The notes under the pieces are model-generated. The model did not search any database and was not told the DNA's origin. It saw nothing but the letters and a program-made list of their open reading frames with translations. This document shows positions 4,489 through 49,846 of a stretch of 64,000 bases of DNA, piece after piece. Positions within the stretch are counted from its first letter, which is position 1. Each line of letters begins with the position of its first letter. The stretch covers positions 206 to 64,205 of the forward strand of contig JAFTON010000002.1 in assembly GCA_017463765.1 (NCBI GenBank), given 5' to 3'. The DNA comes from Clostridia bacterium (lineage in GTDB: Bacteria > Bacillota > Clostridia > Oscillospirales > CAG-272). The position numbers were made by a program, and so were the translations under genes.

Positions 4489-5262
4489 CTAAATTGGCAG
4501 GTCAAGCCTGCTCAGTCTGTCGAGCAGCTCATCATCCTCGGTGGGAATATCCTCGGCAGCCTCTATACGACGGCGAAGCGAAAGCATACGGCTGTCTGTT
4601 TCGGCAATCCTCTCGGCGCATTCCTTAAGCTCGGAGGAAACAAGCTCGGCATCCGGAATCTCCTTTTTATACTTCATCTGATGCTCAAGACTTGCCCAAT
4701 AATCCATGGCAATCGTGCGTATCTGTACCTCAACCTTAACGTTTTTCTTGGTTTCGGAAAGAAACACCGGGATCGATACGATAAGATGCAGGCTGCGATA
4801 GCCGTTCGGCTTCGGATTTTCAATATAATCCTTACGCGCCACAAGCGTTACGTCATCCTGGCTGAGAAGCGAATCGGCGATAAGATAAATGTCGTCAACG
4901 TAGGGGCATATTACACGCACACCTGCGATATCGTTTATATTCTCCTCAATGCTCTCCATACTGAAGGGATATCCACGGCGCAAAAGCTTTTCAATCACGC
5001 TCTCGGTCCTTTTCAGACGGGAAGCGATCGAGCTGATGGGATTACGCTTATATTTCAGCTTGAACTCGCAGTCAAGCACCTCGAGCTTCGTCTTTATTTC
5101 CTTCATGGCGCAGGTGTAGATCATCTGCATTTCCTTGTATTCAACCACCGACCACATCATGCGCTTGGTCTGGTCTATAAGCATATCCATAGCACCACTG
5201 TCGGAAAGCATTTTCATCATACCCATGGCAGTTTTATCCATTAAGGAACGGTCGTCATTCAT
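4489..5262 (-). CDS. small alarmone synthetase (RelA/SpoT-domain GTP pyrophosphokinase)
   Basis: Motifs DIAGVRVICPYVDDIY, YRSLHLIV and VEVQIRTIAMDYWASLEH. An AGGAG lies 8 nt before the ATG at 5262. The longer ORF to 5355 is less likely. Confidence 0.85.
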   Translation of the reverse strand: MNDDRSLMDKTAMGMMKMLSDSGAMDMLIDQTKRMMWSVVEYKEMQMIYTCAMKEIKTKLEVLDCEFKLKYKRNPISSIASRLKRTESVIEKLLRRGYPFSMESIEENINDIAGVRVICPYVDDIYLIADSLLSQDDVTLVARKDYIENPKPNGYRSLHLIVSIPVFLSETKKNVKVEVQIRTIAMDYWASLEHQMKYKKEIPDAELVSSELKECAERIAETDSRMLSLRRRIEAAEDIPTEDDELLDRLSRLDLPI

Positions 5263-46774: not shown

Positions 46775-47623
46775 TTAACTTTTTATTGTTTCCTTTATTA
46801 TGATTTCGCAGTTTTTTTCTTCGGTATCATAGATGATCTCACCGATGGATGTAGCAACTATTCTGCCACTCAAGGGATTTTTTACGCTGTCTATATGTCC
46901 TGTCACATCGGCATCTACGCTTGACAGCTCAAATGACAGGTCACAGTCATACATTTTGCAGTTGATAAGCTTAAGATTCTCACAGTAACAGAATGGCTGA
47001 GTGCCGGTGATCGTACAATTTTCAAGCGTAAGGTTCTTGGAATACCAACCGATATATTCTCCCTTTATCGTGCAATTGCGAAGCGTCACACCGTTCGCAT
47101 GCCAGAAGGCATCCTTGCTGAAAAAGTGAGAGTTCTCAAACACCGAATTCTCTATGTACTGAAAAGCATATTTGCCTTCAAAATCCACCAGATCAAAACG
47201 GATGTTTTTCGAGCGAAGCATACAGTAAAAGCTGTTGATAGAACAACCTACGGCACAGATATCAGAGCAGAACCAACCGAACTCATCGGAAAATACACTG
47301 CAATCGGTCATACGAATATCTTCGGACTCTCGCAGCGCCTTAGGACCGTGAATTTTCGTATTATTCATATTGATCGCTCTTGAATACCAAAGAGCAGCAC
47401 GGCAGCCAGAGGTCATCTCGCTGCTTCTGATATCCAGATCGTAGCAATGCCAGAAGGGATAGCGCAGGTTGAAATAACAGCTCTCTGCCCTGATGCTCTC
47501 TGCCTCCTTGAATGCGCTCTCGCCGTCAGCCGGGCCGTCAATCCTACAGTCACGCAGCCATATATCAAGCTCACCGTAAAATGCACGCTCGGCATCAAAG
47601 GATAAATTCTCTATACATTTCAT
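46775..47623 (-). CDS. DUF3737-like right-handed beta-helix protein
   Basis: 282 aa. Repeated ..C.I.G / N..F.. beta-helix turns. N-terminal FDAERAFYG pattern, as I recall for DUF3737. Confidence 0.6.
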   Translation of the reverse strand: MKCIENLSFDAERAFYGELDIWLRDCRIDGPADGESAFKEAESIRAESCYFNLRYPFWHCYDLDIRSSEMTSGCRAALWYSRAINMNNTKIHGPKALRESEDIRMTDCSVFSDEFGWFCSDICAVGCSINSFYCMLRSKNIRFDLVDFEGKYAFQYIENSVFENSHFFSKDAFWHANGVTLRNCTIKGEYIGWYSKNLTLENCTITGTQPFCYCENLKLINCKMYDCDLSFELSSVDADVTGHIDSVKNPLSGRIVATSIGEIIYDTEEKNCEIIIKETIKS

Positions 47624-47701
47624 AATTCACCTACAAAATAAATATTTATTATATAGTAACACACTTAAAATAAAATTTCAATATTTTTTTGCGAATTCCC
47701 C

Positions 47702-47730
47702 TTGACAAACGATAAAATGTCTGTTATAAT
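47702..47730 (+). promoter_or_regulatory. consensus sigma-A promoter of the tRNA operon
   Basis: TTGACA (47702-47707), 17-nt spacer, TATAAT (47725-47730). Sits 15 nt upstream of tRNA-Val. Confidence 0.75.
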
Positions 47731-47745
47731 TGTATAGCATTTGAC

Positions 47746-47821
47746 GGAAGGTTAGCTCAGTTGGGAGAGCATCTGCCTTACAAGCAGAGGGTCACAGGTT
47801 CGAGCCCTGTACTTTCCACCA
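47746..47821 (+). tRNA. tRNA-Val (anticodon TAC)
   Basis: Hand-folded cloverleaf: acceptor GGAAGGT/ACTTTCC, anticodon loop CTTACAA, T-loop TTCGAGC, encoded CCA. Confidence 0.9.
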
Positions 47822-47849
47822 AAGCTTAGAGCCTTAGGCTCTAAGCTTT
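47821..47849 (+). other. perfect 13-bp stem / 3-nt loop hairpin between tRNA-Val and tRNA-Asp
   Basis: AAAGCTTAGAGCC-TTA-GGCTCTAAGCTTT. It begins at the last A of the tRNA-Val CCA. Confidence 0.8.
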
Positions 47850-47863
47850 CAATTTTACTACTC

Positions 47864-47940
47864 GGCTTGGTAGCTCAGTTGGTTAGAGCGCTAGCCTGTC
47901 ACGCTAGAGGTCGTGGGTTCGAGCCCCATCCGAGTCGCCA
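47864..47940 (+). tRNA. tRNA-Asp (anticodon GTC)
   Basis: Acceptor GGCTTGG/CCGAGTC, anticodon loop CTGTCAC, T-arm GTGGG-TTCGAGC-CCCAT, encoded CCA. Confidence 0.9.
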
Positions 47941-48046
47941 CATTTTTATATCAGTCATTACCGGCTCGAACAGAGGAGGTAGTGAATGACAGTCCGGTGG
48001 ACTGTCAGAGCCGACGGCGACCAAGACGCGCAGTTCGCGTCGCGAC

Positions 48047-48067
48047 CGAGCCCCATCCGAGTCGCCA
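48047..48067 (+). repeat. 21-nt exact duplicate of the tRNA-Asp 3' end (T-loop to CCA)
   Basis: CGAGCCCCATCCGAGTCGCCA occurs at 47920-47940 (inside the tRNA) and again at 48047-48067. Confidence 0.85.
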
Positions 48068-48085
48068 TTTTAAAAATCAATACCT

Positions 48086-48161
48086 GCGGATTTAGCTCAT
48101 TTGGTAGAGCGCCACCTTGCCAAGGTGGAGGTGGCGGGTTCGAGCCCCGTAATCCGCTCCA
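48086..48161 (+). tRNA. tRNA-Gly (anticodon GCC)
   Basis: Acceptor GCGGATT/AATCCGC, anticodon loop TTGCCAA, T-arm GCGGG-TTCGAGC-CCCGT, encoded CCA. Confidence 0.9.
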
Positions 48162-48165
48162 AAAT

Positions 48166-48200
48166 AAAAACCGTACCCAAAGAGGTACGGTTTTTGTTTT
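48166..48200 (+). terminator. intrinsic terminator after tRNA-Gly
   Basis: AAAAACCGTACC-CAAAGA-GGTACGGTTTTTGTTTT. Confidence 0.8.
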
Positions 48201-48276
48201 GGACGGGAATGGGGCTTTCGTCGCACCAAAGCGACGATTAGCCCTTAAGTTTGCCTCGCAAACTTAACGTGTTGCT

Positions 48277-48343
48277 TCGCACCAAAGCGAAGCAACGCAG
48301 CGTAATACCGCTCTCAAGGACACTCCTTGTGGGTGTCCTTTTG
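48277..48343 (+). repeat. copy 1 of duplicated module (36-nt exact repeat plus AAGGACAC...GTGTCCTTTT hairpin)
   Basis: TCGCACCAAAGCGAAGCAACGCAGCGTAATACCGCT at 48277-48312 is identical to 48559-48594. It is followed by the hairpin AAGGACAC-loop-GTGTCCTTTTG. Confidence 0.8.
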
Positions 48344-48558
48344 TTTTGGACGGATAGGGGCGTCCACCCACCAAGAACCCTTTGGGTTCTGCGGATTCTC
48401 TCCCGTCTGCTTTTGTGTCGTCGCACTTCGCCTCGATTCGCTCGGCTCGTCCGACTCGCAACGCGAGACATCGCTTCACGAAAAATAGTTCTCAACTATT
48501 TTTCCCTCGCTCTCCCCGTAATCCGAGTGCCTCACCACAATGCTTGTTGGAGTTTTCA

Positions 48559-48665
48559 TCGCACCAAAGCGAAGCAACGCAGCGTAATACCGCTACAAAA
48601 AGTAATAGAAAGACTATTAATTTTATATAAATTATAGAAGGACACCCACGTAGGTGTCCTTTTTG
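48559..48665 (+). repeat. copy 2 of duplicated module, with an AT-rich 43-nt insertion before the hairpin
   Basis: 36-nt exact repeat at 48559-48594. Hairpin AAGGACACCC-ACGTA-GGTGTCCTTTTT at about 48638-48665. Confidence 0.8.
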
Positions 48666-48673
48666 GGTTATTA

Positions 48674-49846
48674 CTACGAAAGACTCTTCAGCGTTTCCAT
48701 TACGTAGTCGCCGAACTCGTGGCAGGTTGCGCCGGTGGGACGGCCGGTGATAACGAGCTTTTTCTCCTCAAAGGTACAGACGTCGAGGGCGCGTTCAAGT
48801 CTGTCGGCGCGATCCTGATATCCTATATGCGACAGGAGCATTACGCAGGCACGAAGCATCGAGCAGGGATCGGCATAAATGTCTCTGCCCTCCTTCACCA
48901 TTCTGGGTGCCGAGCCGTGAATTGCCTCAAACATGGCATACTTTTTACCGATATTGGCACAGCCTGCCGTACCTACGCCACCCTGAAATTCAGCAGCCTC
49001 ATCTGAAATAATATCGCCGTAGAGGTTTGGCAAAAGGAGAATCTGAAAATCTGCGCGACGCTTCTTATCCACCAGCTTTGCCGTCATAATATCAGCATAC
49101 CACTCATCTGTGGTGATCTCGGGATAAAGAGCAGCTACCTTATGACAATCCTCAAGGAAGTTGCCGTCGGTGGTCTTGATGATATTCGCTTTTGTAACAA
49201 GCGACACACGGGTGCGACCGTTCTTTCTCGCATAGTCATAGGCAATTCTGGCAATTCTGTCCGAGCCCTGCCTTGTGGTGATGGTGAAATCAACAGCAAG
49301 ATCCTCCGTTACGTTAAAGCCCGACGATCCAACGGCATATCCACCCTCGGTATTCTCACGGAAGATGCACCAATTTATACCCTCCTCGGGAACTTTTACG
49401 GGTCTGATATTTGCAAAAAGATCCAGCGCCTTACGCATAGCCACGTTTGCAGACTCGATATTCGGCATACCATCACCCTTCTGTGGCGTGGTGGTGGGAC
49501 CCTTCAGAATTACATCACACGCCTTCAGCTCTGCCATAACGTCATCGGGAATAGCCTTGCCACAAGCGATACGGTTTTCAATGGTAAGTCCATCTATTAC
49601 GCGAAACTCAACCTTGCCACTCGAAACAAGATCAGAAAGCATAAATTCAAGCACTCGCGCTGCTTCTTTCGTAATGATCGGGCCAATACCGTCACCACCA
49701 CACACACCGATTTTTATTGTATCGAGTGATGAGTAGTCGGTAAAGTCTCCCTGTGCCTTCATATCCTCAACTCTTTGAAGCTGCTTTTCAAGAATTGCCC
49801 TGAATTTTTCACACGCTTCATCAAGATTTTTTGTATAATCAATCAT
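48674..49846 (-). CDS. isocitrate dehydrogenase (isocitrate/isopropylmalate dehydrogenase family)
   Basis: 390 aa. NLYGDIISDEAA and IHGSAP motifs. Operon context with aconitase and a citrate synthase-like enzyme. Confidence 0.8.
   Translation of the reverse strand: MIDYTKNLDEACEKFRAILEKQLQRVEDMKAQGDFTDYSSLDTIKIGVCGGDGIGPIITKEAARVLEFMLSDLVSSGKVEFRVIDGLTIENRIACGKAIPDDVMAELKACDVILKGPTTTPQKGDGMPNIESANVAMRKALDLFANIRPVKVPEEGINWCIFRENTEGGYAVGSSGFNVTEDLAVDFTITTRQGSDRIARIAYDYARKNGRTRVSLVTKANIIKTTDGNFLEDCHKVAALYPEITTDEWYADIMTAKLVDKKRRADFQILLLPNLYGDIISDEAAEFQGGVGTAGCANIGKKYAMFEAIHGSAPRMVKEGRDIYADPCSMLRACVMLLSHIGYQDRADRLERALDVCTFEEKKLVITGRPTGATCHEFGDYVMETLKSLS

Follow-up and report, generated by a model that had tools for sequence, protein, structure and literature searches.

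Hairpin units behind a clostridial tRNA-Gly(GCC) gene form an array resembling the tRNA-linked repeats of E. coli

E. coli has been known since 1978 to carry tRNA-linked repeats (TLRs) (Egan & Landy 1978, in PMC8144298). Twenty-two units are distributed over ten loci, at one to five units per locus, behind tRNA or rRNA genes, and a unit closes with 18-19 bp that match the 3' terminus of the gene upstream exactly (PMC8144298). They include the 178-bp repeats of tyrT, with the RttR/rtT RNA, and the rrnA/B/D units RrA/RrB/RrF (Egan & Landy 1978, Rudd 1999, in PMC8144298). The units in rrn operons lie between terminators T1 and T2 and are produced via read-through of T1 (PMC8144298). Another RNA from an E. 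coli tRNA operon, 3'ETS-leuZ, is an sRNA sponge cut from the 3' external transcribed spacer of glyW-cysT-leuZ (Lalaouna 2015, in PMC8144298), and it pairs with RyhB and RybB (PMC8144298). We found no literature on DNA mobility of TLRs.

Here we describe an array of comparable layout in an uncultured lineage of Clostridia (Oscillospirales). The window (the whole stretch of DNA analysed, 64,000 nucleotides) holds a + strand operon (47746-48161) of tRNA-Val(TAC) (47746-47821), tRNA-Asp(GTC) (47864-47940) and tRNA-Gly(GCC) (48086-48161), with a consensus promoter, TTGACA-17-TATAAT (47702-47730), 5' of tRNA-Val. Converging on it from the - strand is an operon whose last gene, of the Iso_dh family (IDH), has its stop codon at 48674-48676. 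An initial annotation had described the tract between the two as packed with stable stems and free of credible open reading frames, and the latter judgement held, no ORF of the tract having a Pfam match. A coding reading was rejected on this basis and because the 'genes' annotated in relatives overlap tRNAs; gene callers laid 'genes' of 151-199 aa over the arrays of three relatives (L010-L012). The Rfam search that the annotation had proposed returned the three tRNAs and no other family, both at the gathering threshold and with cmscan of 47600-48750 at E values up to 10. Of some 22 distinct perfect hairpins with stems of 8 bp or more that the window contains, about seven fall within 47821-48661, and the fold of 48196-48346 is unusually stable on either strand (z = -7.6 on the + strand, -7.45 on the - strand). 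The tract proved to consist of three units added to the tRNA-Val/Asp/Gly operon behind tRNA-Gly, with a fourth behind tRNA-Asp.

Each unit linked to tRNA-Gly follows an intrinsic terminator, contains one to four near-perfect hairpins and is closed by an echo of the tRNA-Gly 3' end in direct orientation; in the alpha and X units the same end, inverted, also stands at the start. Units start 5-35 nt past tRNA-Gly and immediately past tRNA-Asp. Terminator T0, a + strand stem-loop (48166-48195), follows tRNA-Gly and is the centre of an imperfect palindrome (48143-48216; 32 predicted pairs, z = -8.9) made up of the 3' part of tRNA-Gly with an A-tract, the T0 stem-loop, a T-tract and an inverted tRNA-Gly 3' end (48200-48216). 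The alpha unit (48196-48315, + strand) begins with this inverted end, TGGACGGGAATGGGGCT, continues through hairpins A, B and C, and closes with the echo CGTAATaCCGCTC (48301-48313), which comprises 13 nt of the tRNA-Gly 3' end with one A inserted; in relatives the match is 13-14 nt long and exact. The stem that the inverted copy and the echo would close is weak in the alpha unit of the window. The three hairpins are those noticed in the initial annotation: A at 48211-48244 (core 48212-48244), B at 48247-48265, extendable to 48245-48267, and C at 48272-48295, extendable to 48271-48296. Hairpins A and C share the loop ACCAAA, the exact complement of the tRNA-Gly D-loop TTTGGT (48100-48105). Neither carries a T-tract and they are not terminators, while B is a weak match to the terminator pattern (5 T in its tail). 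Terminator T1 (48316-48347, + strand; hairpin 48316-48340) follows as AAGGACAC..GTGTCCTT and then TTTGTTTT, with a T-tract on the + side only. The period of alpha is 147 nt, which is also the distance between the two occurrences of TTTTGTTTTGGACGG, at 48192 and 48339, a recurrence that had already been pointed out.

The X unit (48344-48525, + strand) opens with an inverted, decayed copy of tRNA-Gly (48347-48373 plus the hairpin 48374-48390), carries a second hairpin at 48480-48504 and ends in the echo CCCCGTAATCCG (48514-48525), which matches 12 of 12 nt of tRNA-Gly (48145-48156). Both stems and the 12-nt echo had been listed from the outset and were found again. Over its first 27-55 nt, X can be aligned with reverse-complemented tRNA-Gly (shuffle p = 0.016 in the window, <=0.002 in two relatives), and significant alignment of this 5' part to forward tRNA-Gly was absent. 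Support for alpha itself being an inverted tRNA-Gly copy was weak (p = 0.04 in L012, 0.32 in the window), and ARAGORN output at 70% thresholds for pseudo-tRNAs within the units was noisy and was set aside.

The third unit is a truncated alpha copy (48548-48594, + strand) in which the left arm of hairpin A runs into the right arm of C at their common 13-mer CGCACCAAAGCGA, with 56 nt missing between the two direct repeats, and ends in the echo GTAATACCGCT. An exact 36-nt repeat reported earlier (48277-48312 = 48559-48594) extends to 41 nt at 95% identity, and the truncated ACCAAA copy reported with it was located at 48559-48572. The nested duplication that the initial annotation suggested thus takes the form of a tandem unit array in which the third ACCAAA copy descends from the first unit by deletion; the 56 nt were lost through recombination between the ACCAAA cores within one unit. 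An AT-rich spacer (48595-48637) leads to terminator T2 (48638-48666, + strand), which is common to the convergent IDH operon and whose hairpin (48638-48661) is, with that of T1, one of the two AAGGACAC...GTGTCCTT terminator-like hairpins first seen. T0, T1 and T2 all combine a GC-rich hairpin with a T-tract, and in the arrays inspected the terminators between units carry their T-tract on the + side only. For the 12-mer CGCACCAAAGCG, 0.13 occurrences were expected in 64 kb and three were seen, all of them in the tract. Every element of the initial annotation was recovered where it had been placed, and the set goes well past what chance would give. The units are at least partly derived from rearranged copies of tRNA-Gly and its terminator. 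New relative to the first description are the 21-nt tRNA-Asp echo (below), the inverted tRNA-Gly 3' end after each T-tract, the chimeric nature of the third ACCAAA copy, the tRNA-linked-repeat architecture and copy-number variation at the strain level.

Behind tRNA-Asp, the delta unit (47941-48067, + strand) is a 106-nt hairpin module followed by an exact echo, the last 21 nt of tRNA-Asp (47920-47940) recurring at 48047-48067 (21/21). The unit is present in L011 and L020, absent from L002, L003 and L009/L010, and vestigial in L016-L019 and L021, where the 5' part is all that is left. The closest relative, L001, is 99.7% identical to the window and has the same tract; it differs by a compensated A-T to G-C change at 48026/48040, in the GACGCG/CGCGTC stem of delta, and by six more differences clustered at 48068-48078, which suggests a recombination tract or a templated double mutation.

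The core of delta, GTAGTGAATGACAGTCCGGTGGACTGTCAGAGCC, was also found elsewhere. It is conserved letter for letter behind tRNA-Gly in L016, its group extends to L011, L020, L016-L018, L028-L031 and L077, and a scan of IMG/VR gave four real but uninformative hits which, like one gut contig, carry the core with no tRNA nearby. It always sits within a longer hairpin with a covarying closing stem, and four core-bearing loci returned no Rfam match apart from tRNAs. The delta core looks like a widespread, undescribed structured element of Clostridia. Other features of the operon are a perfect 13-bp hairpin between tRNA-Val and tRNA-Asp (47821-47849), AAAGCTTAGAGCC-TTA-GGCTCTAAGCTTT, and the string CTTTCCACCAAAGC (tRNA-Val 3' end plus trailer), which resembles the 5' arm and loop of hairpin C at 12 of 14 nt. 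Gene content of the operon is variable too, L003 having an additional tRNA-Phe(GAA) between tRNA-Asp and tRNA-Gly (5077-5152).

The likeness to E. coli TLRs is one of architecture. In both, the units stand directly behind a tRNA gene and within its operon, and a unit ends in a repeat of the 3' terminus of the gene before it, as the delta, X and alpha echoes show. Both occur as one to several tandem copies, with a period of ~150-180 bp, between successive terminators; the three units behind tRNA-Gly, the one behind tRNA-Asp, and the one to at least three found in relatives are within the one to five described for E. coli. The array and the E. coli tyrT units also both hold decayed forward or inverted tRNA pieces: the K-12 tyrT/tyrV unit contains decayed tRNA-Tyr in forward (p = 0.004) and inverted (p = 0.002) orientation in addition to its 19-nt echo. 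Our echo search recovered this known 19-nt echo at tyrV, used as a control, and in the clostridial loci it gave 16 locus instances of a tRNA-end echo on the downstream side of tRNA-Gly or tRNA-Asp and none on the upstream side. The systems differ in that echoes here are 12-21 nt long against 18-19 nt in E. coli, those of tRNA-Gly being shorter than in E. coli, and in that perfect hairpins with a conserved ACCAAA loop predominate in an array known from sequence alone and hosted by an uncultured Clostridia/Oscillospirales lineage. Homology to E. coli TLR RNAs was not found (cmscan of 47600-48750, E up to 10). Because no Rfam family beyond tRNA matches, the array is an analogue and not a homologue of E. 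coli TLRs, and it is best filed as their clostridial counterpart, a new non-homologous variant. We hold with moderate confidence that the tract is a TLR-type array at the 3' end of tRNA-Gly(GCC), probably expressed via terminator read-through.

Two other described systems invite comparison. 3'ETS-leuZ is likewise a functional RNA from a tRNA-operon trailer that lacks a promoter of its own, but it sits before the terminator and has neither a tRNA-end echo nor tandem units. REP/BIME elements share with the array clustered stable palindromic hairpins at the 3' ends of convergent transcription units. REPs are dispersed, with tens to hundreds of copies per genome, whereas the array hairpins, unlike REP/BIME elements or MITEs, occur at one locus only. 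A search for further ACCAAA-loop hairpins, as the initial annotation had advised, found the core restricted to the tract within the 64 kb and, where it turned up among 185,579 species scanned, to a single locus in the genome.

Conservation was examined in relative loci gathered via IDH homologues and a DNA pattern scan of those 185,579 species genomes. Covariation was scored over the three stems of eight distinct but related alpha units, with 500 shuffles. Paired cells made up 96.8% of the total and both sides had changed in 14 of 28 pairs, a result equalled by 0/500 shuffles, with the caveat that each hairpin has two or three stem variants only; sliding the registers dropped the paired fraction to 29-44%. 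The covariation of the ACCAAA hairpins that had been proposed from the window is therefore borne out. Between lineages, alpha is 74-92% identical and its hairpin-C/echo segment 88-100%, against 55-67% at third codon positions of IDH, and at least six lineages keep the three-hairpin plan on differing stems. All 35 nt of the window's hairpin A are shared (100% identity) with its counterpart in a beta unit from a lineage with ~79% flank identity. Because its stems covary and its identity exceeds that of IDH third codon positions, alpha is not a decayed remnant. Recombination from lineage to lineage may add to this apparent conservation, since unit types are mosaic relative to IDH relatedness. Watson-Crick pairs fill 203 of the 222 stem cells counted, and such near-pure Watson-Crick pairing is commoner in DNA palindromes than in RNA helices under selection; of the G-U cells, 12 favour the + strand and 2 the - strand. 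In L129 the loop of hairpin C is ACTAAA, which argues against a strict CCA mimic; readings of the hairpins as ordinary tRNA junctions or mimics of the CCA end were rejected. Uncompensated changes mark a decay of alpha in L118 and L129b, and alpha is dispensable in some strains.

The alignment with relatives revealed modular arrays whose unit number varies between strains. L002, with flanks 92% identical to the window, has X alone and neither delta nor alpha. Alpha is present in L007 and missing from L003 and L006 despite 99.4% identical flanks, and in the P0021 species, strains with 98.7-99.4% identical flanks bear one, two or three alpha/beta units; L129 has at least three alpha units. Unit number and composition thus vary within species. 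In more distant relatives the ends are the same and the unit types differ (gamma; delta behind tRNA-Gly), and recombination between two terminator copies (AGCAGACC) would suffice to turn an L012-like array into that of L009. Alpha was found at a single locus per genome, adjoining tRNA-Gly or IDH, in four GTDB species in addition to the lineages found through IDH. A metagenome scan with IDH gave 80 loci, which yielded no units because they were at most 93% identical and had no tRNA cluster.

We find it plausible that the array gives rise to structured RNAs ending at + strand terminators, as the initial annotation had suggested, because the T-tracts are on the + side, conservation is high and E. 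coli offers a precedent. The well-conserved alpha is likely a small RNA. Under this model the strong tRNA promoter would drive read-through of T0, and transcription would continue through alpha and stop at T1, giving a ~150-nt + strand RNA that carries three hairpins of very high stability; the TLR RNAs of E. coli (RttR from tyrT; RrA/B/F from rrn) arise likewise, by read-through of a first terminator. The direction is inferred from the + side T-tracts and from G-U counts that lean weakly to the + strand. Against read-through, T0 appears to be an efficient terminator and no promoter stands in front of alpha. The complementary inverted and direct copies of the tRNA end may form a tRNA-like junction and mark processing sites, and the conserved ACCAAA loops could serve as a recognition surface, for which candidate partners are the tRNA-Gly D-loop UUUGGU, the UUUUGG segment after each T-tract, or a protein.

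We know of no accepted origin for TLRs, and of a tentative function for one subgroup only. The same architecture, non-homologous, in distant uncultured Clostridia suggests that the design recurs and is maintained. A lineage with natural presence/absence variants, several unit types and the ACCAAA loop as a handle makes both the function of TLRs and their origin testable, the origin at issue being palindromic duplication of a tRNA end plus terminator. Such arrays also interrupt assemblies at tRNA loci and draw spurious gene calls.

The units might instead be functionless DNA palindromes. On this account the convergent intergenic region is a 'safe haven' in which template switching and unequal crossing-over build up duplications, both inverted and tandem, of the tRNA end and its terminator, and quasipalindrome correction keeps the arms complementary, imitating covariation. 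The nearly exclusive Watson-Crick pairing of the stems would follow, as would the 32-bp palindrome of tRNA end, T0 and inverted copy, the compensated 48026/48040 change between strains 99.7% identical, the within-species differences in unit number, and the decay seen in L118, L129b and a remnant in L003. The most conserved positions, however, are the unpaired loops and linkers, which are beyond the reach of templated correction; the hairpin-C/echo segment is far more conserved than synonymous sites, and the three-hairpin plan is retained with different stems across lineages. We consider this explanation possible but unlikely.

A more ambitious version of the favoured small-RNA reading makes alpha a tRNA-derived, cloverleaf-like RNA of a cross-phylum tRNA-operon class. 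Its two ACCAAA hexaloops would pair with the D-loop UUUGGU of the upstream tRNA-Gly, or with 5' fragments of it, and the RNA would act as a cis-encoded sponge or chaperone that binds tRNA, or as a processing decoy. The complementarity between ACCAAA and the D-loop is a post-hoc observation that descent from an inverted D-arm could also explain, and we regard the proposal as improbable. If true, TLRs would no longer be a peculiarity of E. coli but a device of general occurrence that evolved convergently.

A duplicated tRNA 3' end is a classical signature of integration, and the initial annotation had suggested integration scars. The echoes would then be attR-type remnants of since-deleted phages, ICEs or islands that used the 3' ends of tRNA-Gly and tRNA-Asp. 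The likeness is real, in that a direct repeat of the tRNA 3' end lies downstream of an intact gene at a strain-variable site, and relatives at 93% identity have gene islands (AraC/HTH plus a 197-aa protein; a 416-aa protein) between the tRNA-Gly array and IDH. As stated, however, the suggestion was not supported. Gene lists and Pfam scans of about 30 related loci gave no integrase or recombinase. The units, at 100-230 bp, are far too small, each has its own terminator, tRNA-end copies are inverted as well as direct, and the junctions are unlike those of a clean core-site crossover. BLAST against phages gave no match for the tract or the delta unit, three IMG/VR hits to the hairpin-A pattern were judged to be chance matches, and conservation exceeds the neutral level, far above synonymous sites. 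Scars are, in our estimate, a very improbable account of the array.

Remoter still is a non-autonomous mobile cassette, MITE- or integron-cassette-like, that has the tRNA-Gly 3' end as its specific target and depends for movement in trans on a recombinase encoded elsewhere. The inverted and direct tRNA-end copies resemble terminal inverted repeats, presence and absence vary within species, and identity across lineages is high in a mosaic pattern at odds with IDH relatedness; the delta core follows tRNA-Asp in the window and tRNA-Gly in L016, and has unrelated surroundings in other sequences. Yet alpha keeps to a single locus per genome, beside tRNA-Gly or IDH only, target-site duplications other than the echo and an associated enzyme are absent, and the L009 array is explicable by homologous recombination of repeated terminators. 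An attC/integron origin was rejected, the GTT...AAC core being wrongly oriented and integrase absent.

A function on the - strand has an equally remote probability: the array would be a bank of 3' UTR stabilisers or terminators for the IDH operon, or would encode a tRNA-like RNA (alpha read backwards is a sense tRNA-Gly-like cloverleaf ending TCCA plus T0), in line with an equally stable - strand fold, a promoter-like site on that strand (48660-48631) and, in the P0021 group, a hairpin beside the IDH stop without a U-tract in the IDH direction, because of which IDH mRNA may enter the array; but the internal terminators inspected face the + direction, the G-U counts weakly favour that strand, and in L125 the array moves with tRNA-Gly and not with IDH.

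Several further observations were made. The - strand site at 48660-48631 reads AGGACA-18-TATAAT, overlaps T2 and is directed into the array. The small gene islands of L016-L024 (93% IDH identity), located between the tRNA-Gly array and IDH and devoid of integrase, are of two types, one with AraC, the 197-aa B-box/2TM-like protein and an HTH protein, the other with the 416-aa protein, which belongs to no clear family. Two MAGs of Oscillospiraceae and Clostridia (L119, 6400-6790; L120, reverse complement, 350-560) have three to four tandem units of ~97 nt with convergent genes on either side and no tRNA nearby; these units contain both motifs of the beta unit, CGCACCAAAGCG and CGCAACAAAG, and are flanked by halves of a GGAGGGGC..GCCCCTCC terminator. 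At the other end of the window, positions 7-104 of the + strand contain a purine riboswitch aptamer (Rfam RF00167, 50.7 bits).
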